Shown: in pieces, positions 4,660 through 62,584 of the stretch | Numbering within the stretch: the first letter of the stretch is position 1 | Layout of the letters: every line of letters begins with the position of its first letter | Assembly: GCA_022763045.1 (NCBI GenBank) | Contig: JALEGI010000002.1 | Location: 21,368-85,367 of the forward strand | Source: Simkaniaceae bacterium | GTDB lineage: Bacteria; Chlamydiota; Chlamydiia; Chlamydiales; JACRBE01 | Length of the DNA stretch: 64,000 bases | Direction: 5' to 3' | Notes under the pieces: generated by a model | Told to the model about the DNA's origin: nothing | What the model saw: only the letters and a program-made list of their open reading frames with translations | The model's database searches: none | Translations under genes and position numbers: made by a program

Positions 4660-4711
4660 TTCCTGGCTTTACAGAGAGAAAGCATTAGCTTGTAAAGCGG
4701 CTTTACAAGCT
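4660..4711 (+). repeat. A-B repeat unit: module A TTCCTGGCTTTACAGAGAGAAAG plus perfect palindrome AGCTTGTAAAGC-G-GCTTTACAAGCT
   Basis: Fills the whole 57-nt gap between the convergent CoiA-like gene (stop 4650-4652) and the membrane protein gene (stop 4710-4712). The palindrome has 12-nt arms with one central base. Same unit at 5645, 25751 and 27782, and reversed at 37547 and 55566. Confidence 0.9.
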
Positions 4712-5156
4712 AAATATATCCCATTCGATGAACATATTCGCGAAGCCAACGGAAATAGAAAAAGACCCCTAAAGCAAGAACAAAGTGAATCAAATTCTGA
4801 AAAGGGAAGTTTTTTTGCATCGCATTTGTTTTGGGGCTGAAACCGCTATACCATACAGGCCAAGAGCCCGCTTGCCAATGAGGTAGCATTGCTTCAGCCG
4901 CAATCATATTGGGAAAGGTAGGTCTTTTGAACTTATTTACGCCTCGATATTCCTTGCCATCAACGTTGAAAATATAATTTGCTATGAAAAAATACTGCGA
5001 TTCGTCCTTGCCCTCGATAGTCCAATGCACACGCGTAGGATGAGTCTTTCGGGTTAATTGCAGGTACTTAAAAAGATCAATTGATAGAATTGCTCCCGTC
5101 CAAATCAGCGCTCCAATTGTCAAAGCAGTGATGCCGAGCCAAATATTTTTTAACAT
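4710..5156 (-). CDS. Hypothetical membrane protein (two TM helices flanking a soluble domain)
   Basis: The track ORF is 4710..5210. I prefer the ATG at 5156 (MLKNIWLGITAL...) because GGAG lies 5 nt upstream. Hydrophobic helices at both ends. Confidence 0.5.
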   Translation of the reverse strand: MLKNIWLGITALTIGALIWTGAILSIDLFKYLQLTRKTHPTRVHWTIEGKDESQYFFIANYIFNVDGKEYRGVNKFKRPTFPNMIAAEAMLPHWQAGSWPVWYSGFSPKTNAMQKNFPFQNLIHFVLALGVFFYFRWLREYVHRMGYI

Positions 5157-5242
5157 TTTTACTCCAACTCTATAAAGGGCATTTACAGATTTGATCCAAA
5201 ATGGTATCATTTCTTCAAATTTTTTAAGCCCTACGGAGTATC

Positions 5243-5533
5243 ATGGCTGAAGCAGGAAAAGGTGACAACAAAAAGAAGCGCCCAAAGCGCCCAACTGCCC
5301 TAAAACGCAAGATCCAAGACGATAAAAAGTACTTGAGAAACCGCATCTTCAAGTCTCGTGTGAAGACAGCAATTCGCTCATTCCAGGAGTCTGTGACGGA
5401 AAAGAACGAAGACAAAATCAAAGCTTGTTTAGCAGCAGTTTATTCTCTTATGGATAAGGGAGTGAAGCGCGGCATCTACAAGAAAAACAAAGCTTCTCGT
5501 ACAAAGTCTCGCCTAACAGCTACTTCCAAGTAA
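5243..5533 (+). CDS. rpsT: 30S ribosomal protein S20
   Basis: 96 aa, very basic. ALKRKIQDDKKYLRNRIFKSRVKTAIR and C-terminal KNKASRTKSRL are typical of S20. Confidence 0.9.
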   Translation: MAEAGKGDNKKKRPKRPTALKRKIQDDKKYLRNRIFKSRVKTAIRSFQESVTEKNEDKIKACLAAVYSLMDKGVKRGIYKKNKASRTKSRLTATSK

Positions 5534-5541
5534 TTTCTTAC

Positions 5542-5590: not shown

Positions 5591-5644
5591 ATCACACAAA
5601 TTTTATTGCACACTTAAGTTGCAACCACTCCCCTACACCTTTTT

Positions 5645-5695
5645 TTCTGGCTTTACAGAGAGAGAAAGTTAGCTTGTAAAGCGGCTTTACAAGCT
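5645..5695 (+). repeat. A-B repeat unit (TTCTGGCTTTACAGAGAGAGAAAG + AGCTTGTAAAGCGGCTTTACAAGCT)
   Basis: Located between convergent rpsT and recD. The last bases of the palindrome overlap the recD stop codon (TAG, 5694-5696 on the minus strand). Confidence 0.9.
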
Positions 5696-7166
5696 ACGAG
5701 TTAAAGCGAGAAATGAGGTTGCTTTCACGATCGCCATGGGACGTGAGGCACGCTGCGAGGATCTCACGTGTAGAATTAATGGTAAGCGAGTGGCGACAGC
5801 GTGTGACGGCGGTGTAAAGCAGCTCACGACCAAAGCGCTCTGAGCCTTCGGGTAGTATTAGCTCTACTTCGTCAAATTCACTTCCCTGGCTCTTGTGAAC
5901 AGTGAGGGCGTAGGCGTATTCGTAAGCGGGTAGGATAGCCTCAGCGAGAGGCTCGCGCCCTGGGAAGTGCGCTTTTCCATTTAGGAGGGTGCCCATTTCA
6001 CCGTTATAGAGGTTAAGGCTGGGGTCGGAGCGTGTGATGAGGATGGGGATTGCGAAGGTGTCGGCTTGTTTGGCAAAGTAGTTGTAGAGGGTGGAATTGA
6101 TGGCATCTGAGCCTTGCAGGCCACGCTTGAGGCCGCAGAGGATGCGGTAGCGGCTAAAATCGACGTTGGGGCTCTGCGATAGGGGAAATTTTTCTGGCTT
6201 TACAGAGAGAGAATCTAGCGAATGGTAGGTGAAATGGGCACTGCCTGCATTGAGGATTTCGAGGACGTTTTGCGCGTGCCCGAGGCGTATGTTTTCAGCA
6301 AGATTGAGGATGTCCTGTCGATCGGAGCGAAGGCACTCTTCTAGGTGGACGTGGGGTATGGCGGGGATTTGGCACATCTGAGAGAAGAGAGTACCCGCAT
6401 CAACGGGGGGAATTTGATCGGGGTCGCCCATGAGTATTACGCGGGTGCCCTCTTGGATTTGCGAGAAAAGCGCGGCGAAGATGCGGGCGTCAATCATGGA
6501 GCACTCGTCTACGATGAGCAGGTCGGCGGCGATTTTCGGGGGATACTCTTTATGAAGCTGGAGCAGCGCATGGAGTGTGCTGGTGGTGACGTCTCGGTTG
6601 ATGGCTTTTGCCAGGTGCTGAGCCGCTTTTCCGGTGGGGGCGGCAAGGGTGATTTTGGCATTTGCGGGTAGCGCTTCGGCAATGTGTTTGGCAACAAAGG
6701 TTTTTCCGCGGCCAGGGCCTCCTGTGAGGATCATAAAAGGCGATTGCATAGCAAGGTGGAGCGCTTTTTCTTGTAGAGCGTTGAGAGCGGGATCAACTGT
6801 ATAGTTTTTTTCTGGATGTGCTGAGAATGAGAGGAGCCTTTTGAGCCCGCTGAGGGTGCGCGTTTCGTAGATCCAGTTCTTTTGTAGATAGTAGTGAGAG
6901 CCGAACTTACCGATAGGCTTGGCAAAGGTCTCAGTGGTGGCGGTGAGCTCTTGCATACAGCTCGGGTTGAAGATTCCTTGGCTATCGTGATAGCAGAGGT
7001 GTCCATGGCGTGAATGGGCAAAGAGTTTTTCGATCAGTGATCTGAGTGTGGGCTCATCGGTGTGAATTTTTCTGCAGATCATCTCTGCGAATGCTTCTTC
7101 AAGTAACGGCATAAATTGCAGGCTCCCGTAGAAAGACATAATACACACCTGCAAAGATCTGTTCAA
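5694..7166 (-). CDS. recD: Exodeoxyribonuclease V alpha subunit RecD (SF1 helicase)
   Basis: Walker A GGPGRGKT, Walker B LLIVDECSMID, motif VI TVHKSQGSEF. The start is uncertain; ATG at 7112 (MPLLEEAF...) would reduce the overlap with recB to 14 nt. Confidence 0.85.
   Translation of the reverse strand: MNRSLQVCIMSFYGSLQFMPLLEEAFAEMICRKIHTDEPTLRSLIEKLFAHSRHGHLCYHDSQGIFNPSCMQELTATTETFAKPIGKFGSHYYLQKNWIYETRTLSGLKRLLSFSAHPEKNYTVDPALNALQEKALHLAMQSPFMILTGGPGRGKTFVAKHIAEALPANAKITLAAPTGKAAQHLAKAINRDVTTSTLHALLQLHKEYPPKIAADLLIVDECSMIDARIFAALFSQIQEGTRVILMGDPDQIPPVDAGTLFSQMCQIPAIPHVHLEECLRSDRQDILNLAENIRLGHAQNVLEILNAGSAHFTYHSLDSLSVKPEKFPLSQSPNVDFSRYRILCGLKRGLQGSDAINSTLYNYFAKQADTFAIPILITRSDPSLNLYNGEMGTLLNGKAHFPGREPLAEAILPAYEYAYALTVHKSQGSEFDEVELILPEGSERFGRELLYTAVTRCRHSLTINSTREILAACLTSHGDRESNLISRFNS
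6192..6213 (+). repeat. Solo module A inside recD (22 nt identical to the spacer form)
   Basis: TTCTGGCTTTACAGAGAGAGAA. Read antisense by recD as D-S-L-S-V-K-P-E. Confidence 0.9.
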
Positions 7167-24860: not shown

Positions 24861-25711
24861 TGCGTGATCCTTTCGATAAAATTTTTAATTGCCAGGTATT
24901 TTTCTCGGTGAAAGCCAGGAGATTTTAAATTCCAGTTCGACCCCGCTCGATAATGCAAAAAGTGGCGATCTGCCATCCACTCTGAATCCTTCGGTTGAGC
25001 TGCAATGAGTGCATTTTCTTCCTCTGTAAAGCTAGAATTTTGGGGTGTCTGACTGACATACAAAAGATTGAGGTTATTCACAGCAATATCGCGGTGAGAT
25101 GCAAGATAATCGTGAGTGTGTCCACCTGAGTCGACATTGACCTCTTTGATTGTCCCACAGTTGAAGTTAATCGAGCGATGGTTTGGTAGACGTGAAAAAT
25201 CAAGCATTGCAAGACCTATCCACAAATAGTCCACTCTTTCTCCACTAGGACTCGTGCGATATTGCATGACTGAGGCTATCGGATGCTCGGCTAAATATTC
25301 GTGAAAATTGATCGGCTTTACAAGGAACAGGTCTGAATCAAGTAGCACAACAATTCCATTATGATTAAATCCCAAACGATTGAGAGAAAACTGCACGACA
25401 TTGCAATTGCGCACTGAGGGTGCATTGATATCCTCACGAGCAAGCCGATGCAGATAGGGCATCGCGTGAATGGGTTGAGGAATGCGCACACATTTGACAC
25501 CCTCTTTATGGCAAACCGCTTCAATTTCCCTGCGCATTTTTGTATTTACCGCATCATTGAAGACCACAAATTCAAAGTCATCTTCGACAAAATGCTTCAA
25601 TGTCTTGTGCTGCATTTCGATAAATTCGGGACGATTGTAGGCATACGTGTAGATAAGAACTTTCTCAGCAAAAAGCGCAAGAGGTAGAAATAAGATGAGG
25701 AAAAATTTCAT
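24857..25711 (-). CDS. Signal-anchored GT-A-like glycosyltransferase (putative, DxD-type)
   Basis: MKFFLILFLPLALFA, then KVLIYTYAYNRPEF and VVLLDSDLF (DxD-like). Overlaps the downstream gene by 4 nt. Confidence 0.5.
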   Translation of the reverse strand: MKFFLILFLPLALFAEKVLIYTYAYNRPEFIEMQHKTLKHFVEDDFEFVVFNDAVNTKMRREIEAVCHKEGVKCVRIPQPIHAMPYLHRLAREDINAPSVRNCNVVQFSLNRLGFNHNGIVVLLDSDLFLVKPINFHEYLAEHPIASVMQYRTSPSGERVDYLWIGLAMLDFSRLPNHRSINFNCGTIKEVNVDSGGHTHDYLASHRDIAVNNLNLLYVSQTPQNSSFTEEENALIAAQPKDSEWMADRHFLHYRAGSNWNLKSPGFHREKYLAIKNFIERITQ

Positions 25712-25750
25712 GATTCAATCCTTGGTTTTTAAGGAAAAAACTATGCATTT

Positions 25751-25855
25751 TTCTGGCTTTACAGAGAAGAAAAATTAGCTTGTAAAGCCGCTTTACAAGT
25801 GCTTAGATTCCCCAAAAACCACACCCTTAAAAAACGGCTTGCCGCTTTACAAGCT
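25751..25855 (+). repeat. A-B unit plus a second variant palindrome arm
   Basis: TTCTGGCTTTACAGAGAAGAAAAA, then AGCTTGTAAAGCCGCTTTACAAGT, then AAAAACCACACCCTTAAAAAACGGCTTGCCGCTTTACAAGCT. The last arm contains the ung stop codon. Confidence 0.9.
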
Positions 25856-26524
25856 CCAGTTTATCGGGGATTTACCCCATTTCTCCAAAGCTTGATTGAT
25901 TTTAGAGAAGTGCCGGCATCCAAAAAACTTTGTTGCTGAAAAGGGCGATGGATGTGCCGATTCCAGAATAAGGTGGGGATGGTTTGGGGTTGCGAAAATG
26001 CGCTCACATTTTTCGCGAGCTGAGCGGCCCCATAGAACAAATACAACTGGATCACTGCGTTCAAACAGAAGCTGGACCACAGCATCGGTAAACTGCTCCC
26101 ATCCCCTGCCGTAATGCGACTTGGGCTCGCCACGACGTACTGTGAGTGTTGCGTTGAGCATGAGCACCCCCTGTCCAGCCCAGCTTTCCAGGTTGCCATG
26201 TGTGGGAATCTCCATGCCAATATCGCTGCGCAGCTCCTTGTAGATATTGACAAGCGATGGTGGGGGCTTAATTCCTGGCTTTACAGAGAAGCAAAGTCCG
26301 TGCGCTTGGCCCGGTCCGTGGTAGGGATCTTGGCCAACAATCACGACTTTCACCGCATCAAAAGGAGTCAAACGCAAGGCGTTGAAGACCTCATCTTCTG
26401 GTGGGTAGATCGTCGCTCCAGAGCGCTTTTCTGAATCAAGGAAACTTTTTAGATCTGAGATGTAGGGCTTAGAGAGCTCTGTTTTGAGGGCCTCGTGCCA
26501 CGTCTTTTCTAGGGTGAGTGTCAT
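25847..26524 (-). CDS. ung: Uracil-DNA glycosylase (family 1)
   Basis: GQDPYHGPGQAHGLCFSV and HPSPFSA motifs. ATG at 26524 (MTLTLEKTWHE...) is preferred over the track start at 26569. Confidence 0.9.
   Translation of the reverse strand: MTLTLEKTWHEALKTELSKPYISDLKSFLDSEKRSGATIYPPEDEVFNALRLTPFDAVKVVIVGQDPYHGPGQAHGLCFSVKPGIKPPPSLVNIYKELRSDIGMEIPTHGNLESWAGQGVLMLNATLTVRRGEPKSHYGRGWEQFTDAVVQLLFERSDPVVFVLWGRSAREKCERIFATPNHPHLILESAHPSPFSATKFFGCRHFSKINQALEKWGKSPINWSL
26274..26292 (+). repeat. Module A copy inside ung, coinciding with the conserved FSV(K/R)PG motif
   Basis: CCTGGCTTTACAGAGAAGC, read antisense as C-F-S-V-K-P-G. Confidence 0.8.
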
Positions 26525-26598
26525 ATTGGGACAGGAGAATAGCACAATGCTTTTTTTCTTTAAAAACATTTGAATTGTGTATATACTCTATGGCTCAT

Positions 26599-26673
26599 CT
26601 GGGTGTGGCGCAGCTTGGCTAGCGCACTAGCATGGGGTGCTAGGGGTCGGAGGTTCGAATCCTCTCACCCAGA
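26599..26673 (+). tRNA. tRNA-Pro (anticodon GGG)
   Basis: 75-nt cloverleaf folded by hand. Acceptor CTGGGTG/CACCCAG; D arm GCGC-AGCTTGGCTA-GCGC; anticodon stem CTAGC/GCTAG with loop ATGGGGT; T arm GGAGG-TTCGAAT-CCTCT; discriminator A. Confidence 0.85.
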
Positions 26674-26690
26674 TTTCTTTTGGAGCGCTT

Positions 26691-26864
26691 ATGCAATCTG
26701 ATCCACAATATTATGCTTGGTTAGGTTGGGCGATCTCTTGGATCGTTTTACCCCTTGTTTCTGCGCAATCTTTGATTCGATACAGAGGAAAAAAGAAGCG
26801 TATTGACCTTTTTATTTCTATTTTTTGTTTAGTTCTTTTCATTTGGAAAACAATGAAAATTTAA
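26691..26864 (+). CDS. Possible small membrane protein (57 aa)
   Basis: ATG at 26691 with GGAG 5 nt upstream; two hydrophobic helices. The longer track ORF (26637) would overlap tRNA-Pro. Confidence 0.3.
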   Translation: MQSDPQYYAWLGWAISWIVLPLVSAQSLIRYRGKKKRIDLFISIFCLVLFIWKTMKI

Positions 26865-26869
26865 CTTGT

Positions 26870-27184
26870 TCAAGATTCTGTATCTTCATGAAAAAAATCC
26901 CTAGCAAATCTCGGTGGCGGACTGGGCGGACCGTGAATTTTTTGTATTTCTTTATTTTTTTTATCGACTTCTAGCAAGCTTTTTCCTATGTCGTTTCCAC
27001 CACTAATTACAAGACCGGTACCCATAGCATAAGTAACAGGAGTAGGTATTATACAACATAATGCACCTGTTAAAATTTTTATCCCTCCAATAATCATTTC
27101 AGCTGGAATATCTTGGTTCTTTCTTTTTCTCTTACCATTATTAGTTAAAATAATTGGCCTTTTTTTTAATTGCACTATAGTCAC
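26870..27184 (-). CDS. Hypothetical small protein (glycine-zipper TM segment, basic N-terminus) in the AT-rich islet
   Basis: 104-aa ORF containing GGIKILTGALCCIIPTPVTYAMGTGLVISGG. No family recognised. Confidence 0.35.
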   Translation of the reverse strand: MTIVQLKKRPIILTNNGKRKRKNQDIPAEMIIGGIKILTGALCCIIPTPVTYAMGTGLVISGGNDIGKSLLEVDKKNKEIQKIHGPPSPPPRFARDFFHEDTES

Positions 27185-27560
27185 ATCGATTTAACAAAGC
27201 GCGTTCCCTTTTGAAAATTTTTTCACAAATTAATTCTCTTACTTCAAAAGGAATCTTTGTCCCATTTTCTGATATTACCTGATACACATACTGACTTAGA
27301 TAAGAGAGGTCAGGCATGTAATAGCCTTTACCTAAAAAGTAACACCTTACTTCATATAAAAAATCAACTAACTCATCAACTGTTACCGAATCGTCAATGT
27401 TTTCAAAATAACTGTCTATCCAACCGATTTCTTCGACTTTTATAGGTTCAAAATTTACATCTGAAACAGGATCCGCATTCAAAAATAGACAACCCATTAA
27501 GAATACAATCTTGAAATACTTGCTAAGGCAACAGCAACCATCGTTAAATATATAAAACAT
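27141..27560 (-). CDS. Hypothetical acidic protein in the AT-rich islet
   Basis: 139-aa ORF with a possible lipobox-like FLMGC near the N-terminus. No family recognised. Confidence 0.35.
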   Translation of the reverse strand: MFYIFNDGCCCLSKYFKIVFLMGCLFLNADPVSDVNFEPIKVEEIGWIDSYFENIDDSVTVDELVDFLYEVRCYFLGKGYYMPDLSYLSQYVYQVISENGTKIPFEVRELICEKIFKRERALLNRCDYSAIKKKANYFN

Positions 27561-27688
27561 AAAAACTTTTTTCCCTGAGAAAAGCTTTTCGGCAAATTAA
27601 ACAATACAATAGTAAATATTAATCCCGAACCAAGTATGGTTAGTAAGTAGATGCATGTTTCGACTAAAAAAATTGAAAAATCACTCAT
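27497..27688 (-). CDS. Hypothetical small membrane protein in the AT-rich islet
   Basis: 63-aa ORF with two hydrophobic segments. Confidence 0.3.
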   Translation of the reverse strand: MSDFSIFLVETCIYLLTILGSGLIFTIVLFNLPKSFSQGKKFLCFIYLTMVAVALASISRLYS

Positions 27689-27781
27689 CTCTATTATTCC
27701 TTTTTTTCATCCTATTGATATAGGAGTATTAATATTTTATGACAAATAAATTAACACCCTAGCAAAATTTTCTATGAAAAT

Positions 27782-27831
27782 TTCTGGCTTTACATAGAGA
27801 AAATACAGCTTGTAAAGCGGCTTTACAAGCT
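27782..27831 (+). repeat. A-B repeat unit (module A has one mismatch: GGCTTTACATAGAGA)
   Basis: TTCTGGCTTTACATAGAGAAAAT, then the perfect AGCTTGTAAAGCGGCTTTACAAGCT (27807-27831). The palindrome arm supplies the last two codons and the TAA stop of the ankyrin gene. Confidence 0.9.
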
Positions 27832-29046
27832 CAACTTAGGTTTAAGTTTCCAGTTGTCAAGATTATCGGGATTCGCCCCATTCTCAAGCAGCAATTCGAT
27901 CATTTGAGAGCTTTTTGCCAAGTAAAGCGGCGTTTGCTGATTGCAATCGATCGCATTAATTTCTGCTCCATATGAGAGCAGTAGCTTCACCACCTCAATA
28001 CTGTCCAATTCAACTGCCCTTGCTAGTGCGCGAATCCCTGTTCTATCTGGGAGATTGACTTCGATTCCCGAATTGAGAAGGCTTTGAATGCGCTCTATAT
28101 CTAAGCTTTTAATAGCCTCTGTTAAGATGAGCTGATCGGGGTGCTCCCTCACAGCATACCAAGCAGCCCCTAAAAGCCCCGCCCTTCTTGGGCCTGTGTA
28201 GACTGGAACACCTATTTGAAGTTGCTTCAAAGCCCTTTCTAAGCGTCTGCCGTGCCTTTCGGTATGCCCTCCGGTAAACACAATGGAACTGGGTGTATCC
28301 CATGGTGGTGGCAATTTTTTTAGCTTTGGAAAAAGATAGTGATCGAAATATTTTTTCCACCTTGATGCAAATGTTAAAAATATGGTGTCATCGATAACCC
28401 CATTGTTTTGTGCAACAAGTTGATCAAATCCATTCCGACTACTACAGCAGAAATAAGAAAAAATGTGTTGGTCGACAACCGTTGTCTTCCAAATTTCTAG
28501 TCCAAAAATGCAGTTTAGGTCGGAAATGCGCTTGATACTCCCCTTTTGTTCGGCATACCCTATTCCAACTCCAGTTCCGATCGAGAAATTAAAAATAGGC
28601 CCTTTGGGCAAATCTAACTCCTCCATTGAGGCAACTAAGTGGGCAGCTCCATCATCAATGCAGCGCATTTGCGAGGGAGGGATGGCAAAAAGTGATGCGA
28701 TGTTTGGGTTCGTGCGCTCTCTTGCACATAGCTTATTTAGACCTGCCAATGAAAAAGCAAAGTGATAGCCAGCTGCTATCTCTTCATCGATATCAACTTC
28801 CATTGTATTGAGGAGTCTTTCGCGTATCCATTGCGAAACATGCATGTTATCGGGACACTTGCCAAGAGATGAGGGCTCTTGGACCCACTCCATGCGATGC
28901 GCGCCCTCTTCATAAGCTAGTAGAGCCGTTTTTAAACCACCTCCCCCTAGATCAAAGGCCCGTATATATTGTGGCTCTGTAAAAGCTACCAATGGAACTA
29001 ACAGGAATAAATAGATGTATCTCATAAGCGATGTCGATAATAACAA
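27823..29046 (-). CDS. Signal-peptide protein: ROK/ASKHA sugar-kinase-like domain fused to C-terminal ankyrin repeats
   Basis: N-terminal MRYIYLFLLVPLVAF. Kinase-like blocks FDLGGGGLKTA, DDGAAH, IGTGVGIG and AGLLGAAW. C-terminal ankyrin consensus (TGIRALARAVELDSIEVVKLLLSYGAEINAID..QTPLYLA...IELLLENGANPD). Confidence 0.7.
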   Translation of the reverse strand: MLLSTSLMRYIYLFLLVPLVAFTEPQYIRAFDLGGGGLKTALLAYEEGAHRMEWVQEPSSLGKCPDNMHVSQWIRERLLNTMEVDIDEEIAAGYHFAFSLAGLNKLCARERTNPNIASLFAIPPSQMRCIDDGAAHLVASMEELDLPKGPIFNFSIGTGVGIGYAEQKGSIKRISDLNCIFGLEIWKTTVVDQHIFSYFCCSSRNGFDQLVAQNNGVIDDTIFLTFASRWKKYFDHYLFPKLKKLPPPWDTPSSIVFTGGHTERHGRRLERALKQLQIGVPVYTGPRRAGLLGAAWYAVREHPDQLILTEAIKSLDIERIQSLLNSGIEVNLPDRTGIRALARAVELDSIEVVKLLLSYGAEINAIDCNQQTPLYLAKSSQMIELLLENGANPDNLDNWKLKPKLSL

Positions 29047-29197
29047 GTGAAAAGTTATTTGTGAACGATTGGGTTGTGGGAAACTCTGTCAGTAAGCTGT
29101 TTAAGAAGTGTCCAGAATCTTGTTCAAACTTTTTTCTGTTTAAAAAAGGCTGTTTTTTGACACACTTTGCACAAGTTATCAACAGGCTATTTTTTCT

Positions 29198-29887
29198 ATG
29201 AACAATTCCGAGTTTATAAACACTTCCACAACACCTAAAGAAGAAGAAAAACATATAAATATCTCTCTTATATCTTATACCAGCTTCTTTGATCTTAACA
29301 GCTTTGAACACATTGAACTCTTCCACAATGATCCTGTTTGGTCTGCTCTCAAAACTTTGAAGGAATATGTCGATAAGCTAGATTTTTCTATTGAAGTGGA
29401 GACTGAAAGTGCCTATTTGGTGAACCGTGAGAAGATTTCTATTGGAAAAGGCTCTGTGATTGAACCAGGCGCTTATATTGAAGGCCCTTGTGTCATTGGA
29501 AAAAATTGTGTTGTTCGACATGGCGCTTATGTGAGACCGTATACGTTGACTGGTGATGGATGCACAATTGGCCACTCTTCAGAGGTCAAGCATTCGATTC
29601 TACTCAATGGCTGTGCTCTGCCGCATTTTAATTATGTTGGAGACTCAATCATCGGCTCGAACGTGAATTTAGGCGCAGGCTTGATTTGCGCCAATCTTCG
29701 ACTTGACAAAGGCGAGGTCTTTGTTCATGTTAGTGGGCAAAAAATTCCAACAGGCCTTTCAAAGATGGGGGCCATTGTCGGCGATGGTTCGAGTTTGGGC
29801 TGTAATTGTGTTACCAATCCAGGGGCACTTTTCAAAAAAGGCTCTCTCGCCTCCCCTTGTCGCAGCTTACCGGGAAAAATAAAGTGA
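29198..29887 (+). CDS. Hexapeptide-repeat (left-handed beta-helix) transferase, GlmU C-terminal-domain-like
   Basis: Repeated [LIV]-G-x-x-x-x hexads (IGKGSVIEPGAYIEGPCVIGKNCVVRHGAYV...IGSNVNLGAG). Confidence 0.7.
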   Translation: MNNSEFINTSTTPKEEEKHINISLISYTSFFDLNSFEHIELFHNDPVWSALKTLKEYVDKLDFSIEVETESAYLVNREKISIGKGSVIEPGAYIEGPCVIGKNCVVRHGAYVRPYTLTGDGCTIGHSSEVKHSILLNGCALPHFNYVGDSIIGSNVNLGAGLICANLRLDKGEVFVHVSGQKIPTGLSKMGAIVGDGSSLGCNCVTNPGALFKKGSLASPCRSLPGKIK

Positions 29888-34121: not shown

Positions 34122-34146
34122 GAAGCCCTTGAGGGAACTCAAAAAG

Positions 34147-34176
34147 GCCGGGACAATTTGTCCCGGCTTTTTTTTT
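34147..34176 (+). terminator. Rho-independent terminator after the first MOMP-like gene
   Basis: GCCGGGACA-ATT-TGTCCCGGC (9-bp stem, 3-nt loop) followed by nine Ts. An A-run upstream makes it potentially bidirectional. Confidence 0.8.
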
Positions 34177-34223
34177 GTCTAGATTGCTTGCTAAATATAT
34201 AAAAAAAATTAGAATAAAATCGT

Positions 34224-35279
34224 ATGGGACAATTGAAGCAACTCGGTAAATTTGCATTTCTATTTTCCCTCCTAACTTCCAGTACGTTATGCGATGAACC
34301 AACCTTAAAACAGTTCGTCGTACCCAATGCAATGGATACCCTAGGAGTGGTCACAGCTCCCGCACGTCCAGAAATTGAGGGTGATCAGTACTATATTGAC
34401 TTAGAGCCTCTACTTTGGCACGCGCGAGTTGGGGGCACAGCATTTGCTTTCACAAACAACCGCGCAACAGTCGGTCTACCAACAAAAGGGGAGACCAAAG
34501 CCATCAGTATGGGGTGGGACTTTGGCTTTCGCGTAGGACTTGGCTACTGTCTTCCCTACGATGGGTGGGACCTAGACGCCCACTACCTCTACTATCGCAC
34601 AACAGATAGCAACAACACCAATACAACGCGATTAAGCACGCTCACGCCGCTTAAAGGCACACTACTCATCAATCGTAACGTTGATGAAGCGCGCTCGAAT
34701 TTAAAATTAACACTCAGCTCCATCGATCTCATGCTCGGTCGTGAGTTTTTTGTGAGTCCTTTTCTCTCTGTAAAGCCAGCGATTGGATTGCAAACTTCCT
34801 GGCTGAATCTCAATCAGCACACGGCCTATTCTGGAGGCCCTTTTCTCGACGTGAACTCCTATTACGTTGACGATGAAAGTAAGTTTTGGGGCATAGGACC
34901 CAAGCTAAGCGGCAGCTCTCAGTGGTTTATTGGAAACGGCTTTTCGCTCTTCGGTTCACTCGGCTTTGCCATGCAATATGGTAAGTACGACATCTACTAC
35001 CAAGAAGATCTCAGCAACACAATTACAGATTCGCTATTCATTCATGAGCAGCGCCACCAATTCGATCCCGAAATCGATTTCGGACTTGGACTTGGCTACG
35101 GCACATATGTGAACGAACACAAAGCCTTCTTTGAAGTGAGCCTTTGGTATGAAGGGGAGTTTTGGATTAGCCAAAACCAAATGATCCAAGTCTTTCAAAC
35201 AAATGCCTCACGTTTCAATAATGTCTCTGAAGATGTGAGCATGCACGGTGCCACGCTCAAAGTACGCGTTAACTTCTAA
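34224..35279 (+). CDS. MOMP-like outer-membrane porin, paralogue
   Basis: Signal peptide. Shares blocks with 33006..34121 (GWDL..Y.Y.R, LELGR/LMLGREFFVS, KFWG.GP). Ends ...LKVRVNF. Confidence 0.65.
   Translation: MGQLKQLGKFAFLFSLLTSSTLCDEPTLKQFVVPNAMDTLGVVTAPARPEIEGDQYYIDLEPLLWHARVGGTAFAFTNNRATVGLPTKGETKAISMGWDFGFRVGLGYCLPYDGWDLDAHYLYYRTTDSNNTNTTRLSTLTPLKGTLLINRNVDEARSNLKLTLSSIDLMLGREFFVSPFLSVKPAIGLQTSWLNLNQHTAYSGGPFLDVNSYYVDDESKFWGIGPKLSGSSQWFIGNGFSLFGSLGFAMQYGKYDIYYQEDLSNTITDSLFIHEQRHQFDPEIDFGLGLGYGTYVNEHKAFFEVSLWYEGEFWISQNQMIQVFQTNASRFNNVSEDVSMHGATLKVRVNF
34763..34782 (-). repeat. Solo module A inside the second MOMP-like gene (antisense)
   Basis: TTCTCTCTGTAAAGCCAGCG, read as F-L-S-V-K-P-A. 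Confidence 0.85.
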
Positions 35280-35338: not shown

Positions 35339-35650
35339 ATGGATTTAGAAGCAATTTTAGAGCAGGCTAGAAGAGTAGTTGAAGAGGTTGAAACAATCGG
35401 TGACGAAGTTTTGATTGATGTACGCGAAGAGAATGAATGGGAAAAGGGGCATATCGAAGGTGCGATTCACATTCCTCGCGGACTTTTAGAGTTTCAAATT
35501 GAAAAGCACGTCAAAGACAAATCGCAGCCCATCTTACTGTACTGTGCAGGTGGTGCACGCTCTTTGGTAGCAGCCCTTACCCTCAAAAATCTTGGCTTTA
35601 CAGAGGTGAAGTCTTTGAAACATGGCATCAAAAACCAAAAATTAGTCTAG
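35339..35650 (+). CDS. Single-domain rhodanese (sulfurtransferase)
   Basis: Active-site loop CAGGARS and LIDVREENEW. ATG at 35339 is preferred (the track start is 35297). A one-mismatch module A copy at 35591-35608 encodes L-G-F-T-E-V. Confidence 0.8.
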   Translation: MDLEAILEQARRVVEEVETIGDEVLIDVREENEWEKGHIEGAIHIPRGLLEFQIEKHVKDKSQPILLYCAGGARSLVAALTLKNLGFTEVKSLKHGIKNQKLV

Positions 35651-35930: not shown

Positions 35931-35931
35931 T

Positions 35932-37465: not shown

Positions 37466-37597
37466 TAGCGAACAAAGTGGCAAGCTGTTTTGCAAGTGTG
37501 TGGTTTCAGCAAATTTAGTCAGAGTGGTTAATTTGCAAAAGCAAAACGCTTGTAAAGCCGCTTTACAAGCTAGCGACTTGTCTCTGTAAAGCCAGGG
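37466..37597. repeat. Mosaic repeat cluster: variant arm, module D (reversed), palindrome B, reversed module A
   Basis: GTGGCAAGCTGTTTTGCAAGTG; TGGTTTCAGCAAATTTAGTCAGAGTGGTTAA (37501-37531 region); CGCTTGTAAAGCCGCTTTACAAGCTA (37547-37572); TTGTCTCTGTAAAGCCAGGG (37578-37597), which ends 4 nt from the acyP stop. Confidence 0.85.
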
Positions 37598-37600
37598 ATT

Positions 37601-37873
37601 TTAGACGATTTTGAAGTGATTTAGGGGCTCTTTTACTGCTCTCTTGGAGTGAGTTATTGAGTCGATGGAATGGGGATTATTGCTTGCTTTGAGCGCGGCA
37701 AGGAGCTCGTTTGCTTGGGTTTGCGTGCCGTGAACGATAATTTCAACGGTTCCGTCGGGGAGGTTTTGTACAGTGCCACTAATTCCTAGCTTTGTTGCTA
37801 GGTCTTTGGTGGTGGCGCGAAAGCAAACGCCTTGGACTCTTCCAGTTACGATGATGTGGTGGCATTCTGCCAT
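37601..37873 (-). CDS. acyP: Acylphosphatase
   Basis: 90 aa with the VTGRVQGVCFR signature. Confidence 0.85.
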   Translation of the reverse strand: MAECHHIIVTGRVQGVCFRATTKDLATKLGISGTVQNLPDGTVEIIVHGTQTQANELLAALKASNNPHSIDSITHSKRAVKEPLNHFKIV

Positions 37874-45939: not shown

Positions 45940-46659
45940 ATGCCTGACAATAGACTTAAAAACCTTTTTATTCAAGCGAAAGAGCCAACGCCTATTTACA
46001 ACTGTTGTGATTTAGCGCGCATCTATGGTGGAGAAGATGGACATCTACTTTTTGATCAGCAGGGGCTCTTCCGTCCACTTGAAATGATCGCGTTTGAGGG
46101 GACCCCTTTTCAAATCATTGCAAAGAATGGCGAGGTTTTTGAGGTAACTACCCCTTGTTATCCAAGTTGCAAGCCACTTTTTATCCACGCATCTTTTCTG
46201 CAAGAAACTCCTGAGCCAAAGATGGACAAAAAACATCCCGAAAAAGAGGAAGTTATTGAAAAGATGCTCTCGCAAATTGGAGTTCCCTACTTGTGGGGAG
46301 GAAATTATCCAGAGGGGATTTCAAAATTGCTCACCCTTTTTCATCCACCTATTGAACTGGGTGAATATGAGAAAAATGCATGGCAATTGAAGGGGCTCGA
46401 TTGTTCGGGGCTTTTGTACTGGGCAACTTCTGGCTTTACAGAGAGAAATTGTTCGCAATTACTCAATTTTGGAGAGCAAGTTTTGCGCGAAAATTGGAGG
46501 CCACGCGCACTTGATTTGGTTGTTTGGAAAGACCATGTGGTCATACTGATTAACTCTCATCAGGTAATTCAGGCAAAAGAGAAGTTTGGGGTCTATATCA
46601 GTCCGCTTGAGGCAAATTTAAAAGGTGAATTTGTCATCAGACGGTGGTTTTTCCTTTAA
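45940..46659 (+). CDS. NlpC/P60-family cysteine peptidase
   Basis: Catalytic-Cys context GLDCSGLLYWA, with a later H in WKDHVVIL. ATG at 45940 is preferred. Confidence 0.65.
   Translation: MPDNRLKNLFIQAKEPTPIYNCCDLARIYGGEDGHLLFDQQGLFRPLEMIAFEGTPFQIIAKNGEVFEVTTPCYPSCKPLFIHASFLQETPEPKMDKKHPEKEEVIEKMLSQIGVPYLWGGNYPEGISKLLTLFHPPIELGEYEKNAWQLKGLDCSGLLYWATSGFTERNCSQLLNFGEQVLRENWRPRALDLVVWKDHVVILINSHQVIQAKEKFGVYISPLEANLKGEFVIRRWFFL
46428..46450 (+). repeat. Solo module A inside the NlpC/P60 gene (sense)
   Basis: TTCTGGCTTTACAGAGAGAAATT, read as S-G-F-T-E-R-N. Confidence 0.9.
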
Positions 46660-49889: not shown

Positions 49890-49974
49890 CTCCTTTAAAA
49901 ATTCAAAATGGCTATCGGTGATTCAAGGGAAGTATAAGTTGATTCTCATTAATCATCAATAAAGAAGGTTGGGT

Positions 49975-50092
49975 GCTTGTAAAACGGAAAAAATTCCTGG
50001 CTTTACAGAGAGAAAAGAGTAGCTTGTAAAGCGGCTTTACAGACATTTAAGAAATGATTAAGAAAAAGGTTTTGTCTCTGTAAAGCCAAGAA
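49975..50092. repeat. Long-form mosaic repeat bounded by inverted module A copies (MITE-like)
   Basis: Module A forward at 49994-50016. Palindrome variant at 50021-50043. CATTTAAGAAATGATTAAGA follows. Module A reversed at 50072-50092. It lies in the divergent greA/nqrA spacer. Confidence 0.9.
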
Positions 50093-54557: not shown

Positions 54558-55559
54558 ATGCTGCAAACAGAACAAATCTTTCTTACACACCGTCCACGGC
54601 GCAATCGTAAAATGCCTGCAATCCGAGAGCTCATTGCAGAATCACATCTTAAACCAAGTGATTTGGTCGTTCCTTTTTTCCTAATTGAAGGCGATAATCA
54701 ACAAGAAGAAATTCCCGAACTTCCTGGTGTCTATCGTTACACAGTTGATCTAGTTATTGAAGAAGCAGCAGCTTTGCATCGCGATGGTATTCAAGCAATT
54801 GCACTTTTTCCTGTACTCGATGCAGAAGTGCGCGACGAGGAGGCAAGCGCCTCACGCGATCCAGAGGGGCTGATCCCCTGGGCTGTGCGCTTGCTGAAAA
54901 AAGAGCTTCCAACACTCACCATCATTGCCGATGTCGCTCTCGATCCCTACACATCTCATGGCCACGACGGTATTGTTGATGATCAGATGCGCATTGATAA
55001 CGACCGTACCCTCGCCGCTCTTGGAGAGCAGGCTCTTGTGCAGGCGGAAGCAGGCGTCGATATTATTGCCCCAAGCGATATGATGGATGGACGCGTGAAA
55101 TACTTGCGTGAAATCCTCGACGACGCTGGCTTTACAGAGACAACAATTTTATCCTACTGCGCAAAATACGCCTCATCGCTTTACAACCCCTTCCGCAGCG
55201 CAATCAACACAGAGCTCTCTTTTGGGGACAAACGCACCTACCAAATGGATCCGGCAAATGTAAAAGAGGCGCTTTTAGAAGCAAAGTTTGATGAGGCTGA
55301 AGGAGCGGATATGCTCCTTGTAAAGCCAGCGAGTTTGTATCTCGATGTTGTGGCCAAAATGGCTGAGAGCACCTCGCTTCCAGTAGGAGCCTATCATGTG
55401 AGTGGAGAGTATGCCATGGTGATGGCGGCAGATAGAGCGGGCCTACTTGATGCGTCTGCAGTCTTTTATGAAACGCTACTTTCAATCAAAAGAGCAGGAG
55501 CGCGTTTTATTTTCACCTACGCTGCAAACCACGTATTGCCAATCTTAACAAACTCTTAA
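54558..55559 (+). CDS. hemB: Porphobilinogen synthase (delta-aminolevulinate dehydratase), aspartate-rich (non-zinc) type
   Basis: RPRRNR, DVALDPYTSHGHDG (no Cys triad), Schiff-base lysine in LLVKPA, YHVSGEYAM. ATG at 54558 is preferred. Confidence 0.92.
   Translation: MLQTEQIFLTHRPRRNRKMPAIRELIAESHLKPSDLVVPFFLIEGDNQQEEIPELPGVYRYTVDLVIEEAAALHRDGIQAIALFPVLDAEVRDEEASASRDPEGLIPWAVRLLKKELPTLTIIADVALDPYTSHGHDGIVDDQMRIDNDRTLAALGEQALVQAEAGVDIIAPSDMMDGRVKYLREILDDAGFTETTILSYCAKYASSLYNPFRSAINTELSFGDKRTYQMDPANVKEALLEAKFDEAEGADMLLVKPASLYLDVVAKMAESTSLPVGAYHVSGEYAMVMAADRAGLLDASAVFYETLLSIKRAGARFIFTYAANHVLPILTNS
55126..55143 (+). repeat. Solo module A inside hemB (sense)
   Basis: GCTGGCTTTACAGAGACA, read as A-G-F-T-E-T. 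Confidence 0.8.
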
Positions 55560-55630
55560 ATGTCTGTAAAGCCGCTTTACAAGCTAACTTTTTGTCTCTG
55601 TAAAGCCAGAAATTTTTCCGCTTTACAGGG
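55541..55630 (-). repeat. Long-form mosaic repeat, reversed copy, overlapping the last codons and stop of hemB
   Basis: The reverse complement reads CCCTGTAAAGCGGAAAAATTTCTGGCTTTACAGAGACAAAAAGTTAGCTTGTAAAGCGGCTTTACAGACATTTAAGAGTTTGTTAAGA. It is colinear with 15459-15547 and 49975-50067. Confidence 0.85.
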
Positions 55631-58533: not shown

Positions 58534-58543
58534 GGAGTAATTC

Positions 58544-59740
58544 ATGCGACTCAATCACTACCTTGGGGGAATCTTACTTGTTTCGGGAACCACGATTGGC
58601 GCGGCGATGCTTGCCGTTCCAATTGGCACAGGTTTTATGGGGTTTTTTCCCTCTCTAGCACTCTTTTTCGCCTGTTGGCTCTTCTTTTTGATCACAGCGA
58701 TTTTTTTCATCGATATCAATGATTCGATTGGTGGAGAGCCCAACCTCATCTCTATGGCTGGAAAGACGATTGGGGTTTTTGGGCAGATTGTGACCTGGAT
58801 TCTCTATCTACTTTTGCTCTACTCGCTAGTTGCTGCCTACATTGCAGGCAGTGCGCCTCTCTTTAGCAAGGCGCTACACATCCCTCTGTGGCTCGGCTGC
58901 TTTGCGCTTCCTGTAGTCTTTGGCTTTTTCATCTATTTGGGGACGGCGGGCGTCGATGTGATCAATCGCATCTTCATGGCTTTTTTGATCTTTACCTACA
59001 TTATTTTGATCGCTTTTGTGCCCGAGCATGTGAGTGGAAATCTCTTGCTGCATATCGATTGGAAGGTCGGTTTTGTGGGGGTTCCTATTGTTGTTACCTC
59101 ATTTGGCTACCACATTATTCTACCAACGCTTGCGACCTACCTTAATCACGATCGCAAGCACCTCATTATGACCGCTGTGATTGGCAGTTTAGTCACGATT
59201 GTCGTGTATGGCATTTGGCAGGCAATGGTACTCGGAGTTGTTCCCTTAACTGGGCCGATTTCGCTCACAAAGGGATGGATAGAGGGCCAGTCGGCCGCTG
59301 CACCCCTATCAATGCTTTTGCAAAATCGCTGGGTGGCCCTCTCAGCTCAATTTTTTGCTTTTTTCGCGATTGTCACCTCGTTTCTTGGTGTCAGTTTGAG
59401 CTTAGCGGATTTTTTGACTGATGGATTGAGTTTAAAAAAGAGTTGGGAGGGAAGGTTAATTGCGATTTTCCTAACATTTGTTCCTCCACTCATCTTTGTT
59501 TTTACCTATCAGCGGGGATTTTATCTCGCCCTTCAACATGGCGGTGCTTTTGTCATTTTGCTCCTCGGATTTTTGCCGAGTTGGATGGCGTGGAAGCTCT
59601 ACCGCTCAATTTCAATGCGTCTTTTACTGATTTTGATGATGCTCATCTCCATTGGAGTCGTGATCATCGACTGCATGGGTCAGTGGGGGCTTTTTCAACA
59701 CCTTATGATGCCCTATGTTCAAGCTCAAAACGCCCTTTGA
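58544..59740 (+). CDS. tyrP: Aromatic amino acid permease, second tandem copy
   Basis: 398 aa with [20 protein letters not shown]. Paralogue of the preceding gene. Confidence 0.8.
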
Positions 59741-61703
59741 ACCGAAAGGGGATCAGCCCCAAGCAATTGAAAAACTTGTAGCGGGTGTCGAAAATGGGCA
59801 GAACGCGCAAGTACTCCTTGGAATTACTGGGTCGGGAAAGACCTTCACGATGGCAAATGTTATCGAGCGGACCGGGCGTCCAACGCTGATACTGGCGCAC
59901 AACAAAACGCTCGCAGCACAGCTCTACCAAGAGTTCAAGAGCTTCTTTCCTGAAAATGCTGTTGAGTATTTCGTCTCCTACTACGATTACTATCAACCTG
60001 AGGCCTATATTGCGCGAACAGACACCTACATCGAGAAGGATTTAGCGATCAACGATCGCATCGAGAGAATGCGCCTCTCGGCAACGTGCGCGGTCTTAGA
60101 GAGACGCGATGTCATCGTCGTTTCCTCCGTTTCATGCATTTACGGCTTGGGTGATCCCGAGTCGTTTGCGAGCATGCGTTTGCCGCTCAAGGTGGGGCAA
60201 GAGGTGGGCCGCGATGATGTGCTCTACAAACTCGTCGATATTCATTATGAGCGCAATGATATTGAGCTGGTGCGTGGAAAATTCCGTGTGCGCGGCGATA
60301 TTTTGGAAATTGTGCCTGCCTACGAAGAAGAGATTGCCTATCGCGTCGAATTTTTTGGCGATGAGATTGAGCGCATCAGCGAGATCGACCCACTGACAGG
60401 GAAAGTTCATCAGCGGATCGAGCATCTGATGATCTACCCCGCCTCGCACTATGTCAGTCCTCCTGAAGTGCGCGAAAAAGCAATTGAAACGATTCGCAGC
60501 GAGCTCAAGCATCAAAAAGATCACTTTGAAAAAGCGCAGAAGCTCGTTGAAAAGCAACGCATTGATCAGCGCACCCGCTACGATATGGAAATGATCAAAG
60601 AGATTGGCTATTGCAAGGGAGTCGAGAACTATTCGCGCCATTTTGAAGGGCGCCTTCCTGGGACGCCACCCTCGACACTCATTGACTATTTTCCCAATGA
60701 TTTTCTCTTTTTCATCGACGAATCGCACCAAACAGTACCGCAGGTGCGCGCCATGTACAATGGCGATCGCTCGCGCAAACAATCGCTTGTTGAGTTTGGC
60801 TTTCGTCTCCCCTCGGCCTTTGACAATCGTCCCCTGAAGTTCGAAGAGTTCGAGAAAAAATTGAGACAGGTTGTCTACGTTTCGGCAACACCAGGTCCAT
60901 GGGAGCTTGAGCAGTCTGGGGGAGAGTTGATTGAGCAAATTATTCGCCCAACGGGGCTACTTGATCCTAAGATTGAGGTGCGCAGCGCAGGGAATCAGGT
61001 CGATGACTGCATGGACGAGATCCAAAAAGTGAAAGCCCGTGGGGGGCGTGTTTTAGTAACAACTTTGACAAAGCGCCTCTCAGAAGATTTGAGTAAATAT
61101 CTCGTCGAGCTTGGAGTGAAAGCGAAGTATTTGCATTCAGATATTGATACGCTAGAGCGTGTGCAAATTATCAAAGAATTGCGTCAAGGGAACTTTGATG
61201 TGTTAGTGGGTATCAACCTTTTGAGGGAGGGGCTTGATATTCCCGAAGTTGAGCTTGTGTGTATTCTCGATGCCGACAAAGAGGGCTTTTTGCGTAGTGA
61301 AACGGCACTCGTTCAAACTTGTGGTCGGGCAGCGCGCAATGAGCATGGCCGCGTTATTTTGTATGCTGATAAAGAGACGACAGCAATCAAAAACACAATT
61401 GCGATTACCGAAAACCGGCGACAGGTTCAAGAAGAGCACAATAAAAAGCATGGAATTACGCCTCATACGGTGAAACGCGAGGTGGTTGAAACCTTAAGCG
61501 AGACCTTCCTGGGTTATGAACCCACAGAAAAGAAAAAAGAGCCGCTCATTATTTCTCCTGAAGAGATCAAAAAGCGGATCAAATCCCTTGAAAAAGAGAT
61601 GCGCGCAGCTGCAAAAGAGATGCGCTTTGAAGAGGCGGCAAACTTGCGTGATCAGCTTCATTACTACCAAAACCTCGAGATGCTCGAGGACAATCCTCTA
61701 TGA
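59715..61703 (+). CDS. uvrB: Excinuclease ABC subunit B
   Basis: [20 protein letters not shown], and a C-terminal UVR domain ([13 protein letters not shown]). Confidence 0.97.
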
Positions 61704-62584
61704 AAAAGCTCCTACTCTCCAATCTTGCGCATATTGGAGATGTGATTATTGCAACGAGCGTATTGCCGAGTTTGCGCGAAAAATTTCCCAAGACTGAAAT
61801 CGGTTTTTTATGCGGTTCATGGGCAAAGGATCTGCTTGACGTAGACCATATCCATGTGCTTGATCACTACAAGCACGATCGCAAGCATCCCTCTTTATTT
61901 CGCTATCTTGCGCAGAAAAGGGGCATTGTTGAGGAGATTTCAGACTACGATGCGGCAATTGATTTGTACCCCTTTTTTTGGAATGCCGCCCATGTTTTTT
62001 ACAAAGCAAAAATCCCCATTCGCGTTGGATTTACAGAGAGAGTTTTTGGAAAATGCTACACACATCGACACCCCTTTTGCCCGCAAGAAAGGCTGCTTTG
62101 TGAGTCCTATCGCCCCTTGCTTGCTGAGTTTGGAGTTGAGGGGCCACTTAAAAGTGACGTTTTGTTTGAAGAGATGGAGCAATATCGCAATTTGACCCTC
62201 CTACATGTCGGCGGCGGAGCTGTGCGAAAGAGGTGGCAATTAGAGCGGTGGATTGCGGTTGCAAAAGAGCTGGAAAAGCAGGGGCATATTCTTGGCTTTA
62301 CAGGGAGAGAAGAGCAAAAATTGATCGCGCCTATTTTAGAGCATTTGGAGCGTCCTGTGAACTTGTGTGATCGGCTTACTTTGAGGCAATTTGCCGGCGT
62401 TGTGCGCCAATCAAGACTTGTGATCGGAATGGATTCTGCGATTATTCATTTGGCCCGCGCTTTTGATGTCCCATCGATTTCGATTCATGCGCCGATTGAC
62501 AATCCCAAAATTTGGGGAGGCAATATTGCACTCTATCAAAGCGCCACATCTAACGATGTGATTAATTCTTTACATTTGCTATAA
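61700..62584 (+). CDS. Glycosyltransferase family 9 (heptosyltransferase-like)
   Basis: [44 protein letters not shown]. Contains two near-copies of module A (62025-62042 V-G-F-T-E-R and 62291-62312 L-G-F-T-G-R). Confidence 0.75.

Follow-up and report, generated by a model that had tools for sequence, protein, structure and literature searches.

The word GGCTTTACAGAGA is found 18 times as an exact copy in a stretch of 64,000 nucleotides (the window) from a Simkaniaceae bacterium, a member of the Chlamydiota (assembly GCA_022763045.1, contig JALEGI010000002.1, positions 21,368 to 85,367). It constitutes a sharply conserved module (A) within a lineage-specific repeat family whose short units are based on the 8-nucleotide core GCTTTACA. 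Some force that acts on the DNA, and not on the encoded peptides, pushes this genome towards the word without insertions or deletions. A molecular drive of the kind associated with DNA uptake signals appears to be the best fit and is tentatively ranked first, because the indel-free conversion of genic sequence is a hallmark of uptake sequences.

The exact copies are found in both orientations, twelve on the plus strand and six on the minus strand (p = 0.24), compared to 0.00 copies in dinucleotide-preserving shuffles of the window. There are 28 copies if one mismatch is allowed, compared to 0.12 in the same shuffles, and the most frequent 10- to 16-mers of the window all belong to the word family. 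Within the window this amounts to one exact copy per 3.6 kb, or one per 2.3 kb at up to one mismatch. Exact copies are denser in non-coding DNA (2.0 per kb) than in coding DNA (0.15 per kb), and the non-coding copies are just as exact as the genic ones. Since a T precedes every exact copy, with a C or T one base further out, the true core is YTGGCTTTACAGAGA, which carries about 26 bits. Its flanks are weak, A/T-rich on the 5' side (aaaWTT) and GA/A-rich on the 3' side (GAGAAA), and are seen in the genic copies too. The 18 exact copies and five near-copies named in the initial annotation were all recovered, the sole correction being that one minus-strand copy starts at 34765 and not at 34766. 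Five more near-copies, at 14857, 15517, 24525, 50033 and 55561, bring the one-mismatch set to ten.

Nine exact and six one-mismatch copies lie inside open reading frames (ORFs). All nine exact copies are read in one of only two ways, as had been claimed before. Four encode GFTE in the sense direction; they are in purB (22010..22022, plus strand, ILGFTET), an NlpC/P60-like ORF (46432..46444, plus, SGFTER), hemB (55128..55140, plus, AGFTET) and a hypothetical ORF of 810 residues (15895..15907, minus, LGFTER). The other five encode SVKP in the antisense direction and are found in recD (6196..6208, plus, (S)LSVKPE), recB (8762..8774, plus, LSVKPG), recC (10731..10743, plus, SLSVKPE), ung (26277..26289, plus, FSVKPG) and a porin gene (34765..34777, minus, LSVKPA). 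These hosts are as first assigned, except that the porin, taken to resemble the chlamydial major outer membrane protein (MOMP), is a member of the Pfam family Legionella_OMP. The one-mismatch copies are all on the plus strand. Three are in sense, namely one in a rhodanese-like ORF (35594..35606, LGFTEV) and two in the same heptosyltransferase-like ORF (62027..62039, VGFTER, and 62294..62306, LGFTGR). Three are antisense, in the 810-residue ORF (15726..15738, FSVNP), in ORF 14557-15438 (14857..14869, GGCTTTACCGAGA, SLGKA frame) and in ORF 24009-24860 (24525..24537, ALCKA frame).

Neither codon usage nor protein composition accounts for these copies. When synonymous codons were shuffled within each gene of the window and the proteins were kept, 0.22 exact genic copies were expected (at most 2 in 300 shuffles) compared to the 9 observed, and 1.6 copies at up to one mismatch compared to 15. 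GFTE and SVKP represent two of the five stop-free frames, and their use by nine of nine exact genic copies has a p of about 0.003. The two peptides occur 6 and 5 times in the proteins of the window, compared to 0.23 and 0.21 expected from composition (an enrichment of about 25-fold). The reversed peptides have no occurrences in the same proteins, and GFTE and SVKP have none in 33,236 residues of relatives. SVKP is encoded by TCTGTAAAGCCA in five of five cases and GFTE by GGCTTTACAGAG in five of six. The codon shuffles, the skewed peptides and the uniform codons together place the signal at the level of DNA, where both codon choice and protein sequence have been altered.

A combined explanation by chance, base composition, assembly artifact or selection on the peptides GFTE and SVKP can be regarded as refuted. 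Nothing speaks for it beyond the fact that the source is a metagenome-assembled genome (MAG) of which only 64 kb were seen. The shuffles give no copies, the genic copies are in frame within conserved, full-length genes, the non-coding copies are as exact as the genic ones, and members of the family are present in sister lineages that were assembled independently. Selection on the peptides is ruled out by the fact that the two strands of one word give two unrelated peptides, always with the same codons.

The alignments of Ung, HemB, PurB, RecB, RecC and RecD show no added length at the word, which thus differs from the insertions described for repetitive extragenic palindromes (REPs) and Rickettsia palindromic elements (RPEs). 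In ung the translated segment LCFSVKPGIKPPPSL aligns without gaps to FSVKPG or FSVRPG of the solved UNG structures; the earlier proposal that the antisense copy coincides with this family-conserved block was therefore correct. Solved structures and 17 chlamydial homologs can be aligned to the HemB segment DDAGFTETTILSY without gaps. Among the homologs GFTET is found in the source alone, and the two nearest relatives have GYTDV. At the DNA level the source has GCTGGCTTTACAGAGACA where a relative has GCAGGATATACAGACGTC; the word itself, GGCTTTACAGAGA, corresponds to GGATATACAGACG in the nearest relatives, which encode AGYTDV. The hemB 14-mer differs from that of the relative by two synonymous and two non-synonymous changes, all of them towards the word. 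PurB EILGFTETF is gap-free against EKAGFKRAF of human ADSL. The recB, recC and recD copies are located in variable loops, without gain in length compared to three or four relatives (four for recD); at the recB site the relatives have DYFPIKAK, DYQTVEAR and similar segments of equal length. The absence of inserted length indicates that the genic copies arose by substitution, and the possibility that all of them are insertions, which would have overturned the initial annotation, does not apply to these six host proteins. Synonymous and non-synonymous substitutions thus converted native sequence that already matched in part into exact copies of the word.

This is what an uptake-like drive would produce. 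A machinery of DNA import or recombination would prefer fragments that bear the word, and alleles that gain or improve a copy would be transferred and fixed more often. Copies would build up where the protein tolerates them, in variable loops or in motifs that resemble GFTE or SVKP from the outset. The same core would serve to build terminator hairpins, and sister lineages would retain the core with differing 3' ends, as 'dialects'. The genic copies combine origin by substitution, peptide enrichment and reading-frame bias. Uptake sequences share peptide enrichment, frame bias and a preference for poorly conserved positions (Findlay and Redfield, PMC2817400). In a survey of 177 genomes about half of the uptake sequences were found in terminators, and RecBCD genes were enriched in Pasteurellaceae (bioRxiv 10.1101/2025.10.24.684340). 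About half of the copies in the window are within terminator-like hairpin modules, and recB, recC and recD carry one copy each. The enrichment in genome-maintenance genes is not significant in the window (4 of 9 copies in about 19% of coding DNA, p of about 0.07 by hand calculation).

The resemblance to the DNA uptake sequences (DUS) of Neisseriaceae and the uptake signal sequences (USS) of Pasteurellaceae is extensive. These occur in hundreds to thousands of copies, about one per kb genome-wide, and their intergenic inverted repeats act as terminators. Like the word, they are short, non-palindromic, vastly over-represented and present in both orientations. About half of the copies are genic and about half are in terminator-like hairpins. 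The genic copies arise by substitution in few frames and mostly at poorly conserved positions, the encoded peptides are enriched, and copies are found in recBCD and repair genes. The extended flanks are weaker than the core, and lineages have dialects with a conserved core. The present case differs in that the organism belongs to another phylum and is probably an obligate intracellular one. The core is longer (13-15 nucleotides), the density is about threefold lower, the arms of the hairpins consist of a variant of the word that keeps a fixed distance from the solo copy, and there are dispersed composites of about 90 nucleotides and a strand bias of the genic copies.

Several of these differences weigh against an uptake signal, among them the structure of the intergenic copies. 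Nine aligned intergenic loci contain two conserved blocks, module A (CTGGCTTTACAGAGA) and module B. The latter is a perfect 25-nucleotide palindrome of two inverted cores, AGCTTGTAAAGC-S-GCTTTACAAGCT (also written CTTGTAAAGC-S-GCTTTACAAG), and is almost exclusively intergenic, as is typical of REPs and bacterial interspersed mosaic elements (BIMEs). The spacer between A and B is variable in sequence and fixed in length at 9 nucleotides (8 in one copy). The arms of B share only GGCTTTACA with the word, ending in …ACAAGCT and not in …ACAGAGA. The B-type half-site (…ACAAGC) is nearly always intergenic, and the A-type (…ACAGAGA) is both genic and intergenic. Three loci (15458-15547, 49974-50090 and 55530-55625) have a longer version, which also includes another arm upstream and a module C (GGCTTTACAGACATTTAAGAAAT.ATTAAGA). 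In these long composites the cores alternate in orientation. Two of them, 15458-15547 and 49974-50063, are 91% identical across 90 nucleotides although they occupy unrelated loci. The fixed spacing and the dispersed copies of about 90 nucleotides point to a duplicative mobile element. Together with the separate palindrome, they constitute a REP/BIME-like behavior, or one similar to miniature inverted-repeat transposable elements (MITEs), which is superfluous to an uptake model. The uptake reading of the initial annotation has therefore survived only in part. The DNA-level word, its restricted frames, its origin by substitution and the terminator hairpins agree with it; the distinct palindrome in the spacers and the element-like copies do not. 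Similarly, of the inverted pairs of the word said to occupy the spacers, one is genuine (49999/50075, with a 14-bp stem), and the other hairpins are the distinct palindrome that shares only GGCTTTACA with the word.

The composites adjoin the 3' ends of genes in 10 of 11 cases. The terminator-like signal is formed by a hairpin and, after it, the reverse complement of A, which is rich in pyrimidines. The B hairpins have folding energies of -19 to -23 kcal/mol, and for most copies z is between -2.6 and -4.0. The first A+B composite (4657..4712, plus) is situated between a CoiA-like gene and the convergent ORF 4710-5210. Its word (4665-4677) is followed by a 9-nucleotide spacer and the palindrome AGCTTGTAAAGCGGCTTTACAAGCT (4687-4711), and its hairpin is terminator-like on the minus strand (4713-4685; minimum free energy (MFE) -21.1 kcal/mol, z = -3.0). 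A second A+B composite (5641..5696, plus; word 5649-5661, palindrome 5671-5695) directly follows the recD stop codon, and a third (25747..25802, plus; word 25755-25767, palindrome 25777-25801) is downstream of ung. At 27778..27832 (plus) a one-mismatch word (27786-27798) precedes a palindrome (27807-27831) that overlaps the stop codon of ORF 27823-29046. On the minus strand, the composite at 37547..37601 (word 37581-37593, palindrome 37547-37571) is downstream of an acylphosphatase gene, and that at 23560..23612 (word 23592-23604) has a degenerate, expanded hairpin (CACTTGTAATGCGGCAAGCCGCTTTGGAAGTG). A solo B palindrome, AGCTTGTAAAGCCGCTTTACAAGTG, is found at 23397..23421.

The long composite at 15458..15547 (plus; z = -3.6) has four alternating cores, comprising a left arm (15459-15469), the word (15483-15495), the left half of B (15505-15516) and module C, GGCTTTACAGACATTTAAGAAATTATTAAGA (15517-15547). 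That at 49974..50090 (plus; -37.1 kcal/mol, z = -3.5) is in a divergent promoter region and contains the word (49999-50011), the left half of B (50021-50032), module C (50033-50063) and an inverted exact word (50075-50087). The third, 55530..55625 (minus), overlaps the last codons of hemB. It has the word at 55595-55607, a B/C hybrid hairpin at 55561-55585, of which the arm 55561-55573 is a C-type one-mismatch word, a C tail that reaches down to about 55530 and, at about 55617-55627, an additional arm. The last five codons of hemB and its stop (…ILTNS*) overlap module C at 55545-55573. Relatives end in …LIN or …LLN, and the repeat thus seems to have supplied a new C terminus and stop codon to HemB.

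Two degenerate B hairpins (35648-35680 and 35905-35931) are found at the 3' ends of convergent genes with a strongly structured spacer between them. The pair at 35650/35917 had the appearance of a split palindrome with a 255-nucleotide insert, but the two hairpins are in fact separate. In the spacer 35651-35931, an RNA structure is predicted at 35744-35868 (plus), with an MFE of -67.1 kcal/mol compared to -39.0 kcal/mol for shuffled sequence (z = -7.7). This segment is a candidate structured non-coding RNA flanked by the two hairpins, and it has no Rfam match even at E <= 1.

The intergenic unit, as judged from its sequence, looks like a REP/BIME-type element. A family of REP/BIME or MITE type is accordingly a possible explanation of the whole, though not the one preferred. 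A, B and C would be modules of a small non-autonomous element that is moved by a transposase encoded elsewhere, for instance of the HUH or RAYT (REP-associated tyrosine transposase) type. The solo genic copies of A would be secondary, created when short patches from hundreds of element copies overwrite partial matches by template switching or ectopic conversion. The modular, oriented units with their fixed spacing, the nearly identical copies at unrelated loci and the alternating cores, which are also characteristic of BIMEs, are in accord with this explanation, and so is the placement at gene ends, at times overlapping stop codons. One unit of 89 nucleotides (49999-50087) is bounded by perfect inverted words, as a MITE would be; no target-site duplication is evident, however, and most copies are only about 55 nucleotides long. 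Furthermore, the spacers between the conserved blocks vary, unlike those of recent MITE copies. The composites show some polarity, five of six being on the plus strand to the left of the GC-skew minimum and two of three on the minus strand to its right, which also favors mobility.

REP palindromes carry a GTAG or CGTC tetranucleotide at one end, and intragenic REPs are documented in recBCD and repair genes, although as insertions (PMC3733652). No such tag is present here, where the aligned copies start with ...tTAGCTTG or ...atAGCTTG. REPs and BIMEs, as well as REPINs with their RAYTs, are otherwise similar to the intergenic unit. They are short palindromes at gene 3' ends with a possible function in termination or at mRNA ends, they form clusters of alternating units with linkers of fixed length, and they have species-specific variants. 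Here, by contrast, a solo word without palindromic symmetry is the module with the most copies. No transposase, including those of the RAYT and IS200-IS605 types, was found among about 60 ORFs of the window that were scanned. The genic copies add no residues and are gap-free in the conserved contexts of ung, hemB and purB, unlike the REP and RPE insertions that have been described. We know of no mechanism that spreads REPs by substitution or enriches their peptides 25-fold.

The genic copies in recC and recD favor the mobile repeat and count against the uptake reading. The recC copy shares a 27-nucleotide identical run with spacer 5643-5669, which extends the identity previously noted between 10727-10750 and 5645-5668, and the recD copy shares a 25-nucleotide run with the spacer copy at 5649. 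Both encode SLSVKPE. Such runs look more like a templated patch than the result of stepwise point mutation. RecC itself (9965-12721, minus) is extremely divergent, with at most 33% identity to any relative. A search for its homologs gave no match above 27% identity and did not return the source's own RecC, though the RpoD and HemB of the source were returned; the deposited MAG may lack a call for this gene or list it as a pseudogene. The GC skew is +0.23 at 6001-8000, which covers recD and the end of recB, compared to about -0.05 to -0.15 on the surrounding left arm, making recBCD a compositional anomaly.

The distribution of the genic copies between the strands is also unexpected for an uptake signal. 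At up to one mismatch they are 13:2 in favor of the plus strand whatever the orientation of the gene (binomial p = 0.007, Fisher p = 0.01). Relative to the minimum of the cumulative GC skew, at about 27 kb, it is 8:1 on the left and 5:1 on the right and thus is not reversed there. The skew minimum (about 26-28 kb) coincides with the lowest GC content (0.40) and with diverging gene orientation (about 24000-29500), and 7 of the 16 DnaA-box-like 9-mers of the window, at one mismatch, are within 25074-29368. The region of about 24000-29500 is a possible replication origin. The lack of reversal argues against a polar motif similar to Chi or to the FtsK-orienting polar sequences (KOPS). Chi and KOPS are likewise oligomers over-represented within genes that act on DNA-processing machines, and RecBCD is encoded in the window; however, they are 8-mers of modest over-representation with a skew that reverses at the origin, whereas the word has a core of 13-15 nucleotides.

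The strand bias would suggest a chromosome-level polarity and is in keeping with another explanation, regarded as unlikely, in which the word is the selected binding site of an abundant, sequence-specific DNA-binding protein. Such a protein could organize the chromosome, mark self-DNA or regulate the very divergent RecBCD in the manner of Chi. Within genes the half-site GCTTTACA would stand alone, extended by GAGA, and between genes it would be paired as a palindrome, with selection keeping each site. The constancy of the core between modules, loci and lineages, as opposed to its variable flanks, is consistent with this idea, as are the fixed spacing of A and B, the use of both DNA strands regardless of transcription, and the neighborhood of recBCD, recA, uvrB and ung. 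A site of about 26 bits every 2-4 kb, even in conserved enzyme motifs, would nevertheless require strong selection at hundreds of positions, and the bias is not reversed at the putative origin, whereas that of Chi and KOPS is. Known organizer sites, such as parS, matS and the Noc-binding sites (NBS), are 10-100 times rarer.

Other known motifs also do not fit. The word does not resemble, by eye, a sigma-54 or sigma-28 promoter, a DnaA box, parS or a LacI-type operator, and a scan with the sigma-70 consensus gave 18 promoter-like sites compared to 14.3 in shuffles, which is no excess. HIP1 (GCGATCGC) of cyanobacteria, said to propagate by nucleotide substitution, is likewise hyper-abundant in genes and spacers. 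It is, however, an 8-nucleotide palindrome linked to methyltransferases, whereas the word is asymmetric, as direct reading of GGCTTTACAGAGA shows, and nearly twice as long. RPEs are repeats of obligate intracellular bacteria that stand in frame within housekeeping genes, but they are insertions of 100-150 nucleotides that add tens of residues, and the word spans 4-9 codons with no change in length.

The family is not confined to the source organism. About 5 kb of sister sequence was available from the two closest hemB relatives (L121 and L122-L124; 70% and 66% identity), in contigs of 1.5-2.7 kb from independent assemblies with a GC content of 45-47%, like that of the source. Each of the two sister lineages has four 8-mer cores in intergenic DNA per about 2.6 kb, with differing 3' ends, in the manner of uptake dialects. 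Their palindrome is CCATGTAAAGC-S-GCTTTACATG, and their A-like units are gaaaatcctGGCTTTACAGGTC, with the endings …ACAGGGG or …ACAAGCC. The outer stem of B has changed symmetrically, from CTTG/CAAG in the source to CATG/CATG in the sisters, which is what a binding site would be expected to do. Homologous elements of the two sister lineages stand in different genomic contexts, which in turn favors a mobile repeat. From these sequences, the core and the 5' flank of A appear to be common to a small clade and the 3' end (GAGA in the source) to be specific to each lineage.

In the relatives covered outside this clade the word was not detected. Eight more distant relatives, anchored on rpoD and totaling about 134 kb (RpoD 85-87% and RecC 23-33% identity, with a syntenic recC-recB-recD-S20-CoiA-rpoD block), contain neither the word at up to one mismatch nor any other hyper-abundant 12-mer. 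A scan of genome contigs with the 16-mer TGGCTTTACAGAGAGA gave, among the matches listed, single chance matches in unrelated taxa. Metagenome contigs scanned with the 20-mer palindrome core yielded nine singletons, chance or unrelated, none with the word, and viral contigs yielded one chance match. Plasmids and phages gave no match to the long composite. In the literature that was searched, no comparable word has been described for Chlamydiota.

The housekeeping genes of the window are typical of chlamydiae and include rpoD, mreC, the gene for S20, recBCD, thrS, purB, dapA, ung, recA, glk, hemB, a thyX-like gene, uvrB and those of Legionella_OMP-family porins. As regards uptake, the scanned ORFs include only recA and the CoiA-like gene. 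The latter (3900-4652, plus) is divergent from rpoD and belongs to a competence family (PF06054, 47.5 bits; PF25164, 33.3 bits). A CoiA-like gene next to rpoD is, however, also present in five of the word-less relatives (L115, L117, L119, L120 and L127), which counts against the reading, as do the density of the word, about threefold below that of uptake sequences in Neisseria or Haemophilus, and the probable life of the source organism as an obligate intracellular symbiont. Neither ComEC, ComEA and DprA nor any pilus gene was found among the scanned ORFs. Chlamydia trachomatis imports DNA via a ComEC homolog (PMC6686042). A genuine self-recognition system of DNA uptake in the Simkaniaceae-related clade, in which a receptor would feed the chlamydial ComEC pathway and both terminators and proteins would have been remodeled, is conceivable but rather doubtful.

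Two further features of the window may be mentioned. A chromosomal ParA-like ATPase gene followed by a gene for a UPF0137 protein (PF03677, 261.6 bits) is located at 19878-21360 (plus) and presumably resembles the pGP5-D/pGP6-D pair of the chlamydial plasmid. The two tandem porins at 33006-35279 (plus) are of the Legionella_OMP family (PF05150) and are not chlamydial MOMPs; three or four tandem copies of such porins are found near rpoD in relatives L117 and L127.

To our knowledge, sequence-specific DNA uptake is limited to two proteobacterial families, and the debate on whether drive or selection causes uptake sequences to accumulate rests on them. If the uptake reading is true, the word would represent the first signal of its kind beyond the Neisseriaceae and Pasteurellaceae, and in an intracellular bacterium. 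It would constitute a third independent case, in Chlamydiota, and allow a comparative test of the molecular-drive model. Chlamydiota exchange DNA inside host cells by a poorly understood, ComEC-dependent route, and the word would provide a handle for the search for the chlamydial DNA receptor and for better transformation of chlamydia-like organisms. If the family is REP-like instead, it would be the first clear module that enters conserved genes by substitution, pointing to an unrecognized process of templated conversion. Either way, a force at the level of DNA measurably rewrites the protein sequences of this organism.

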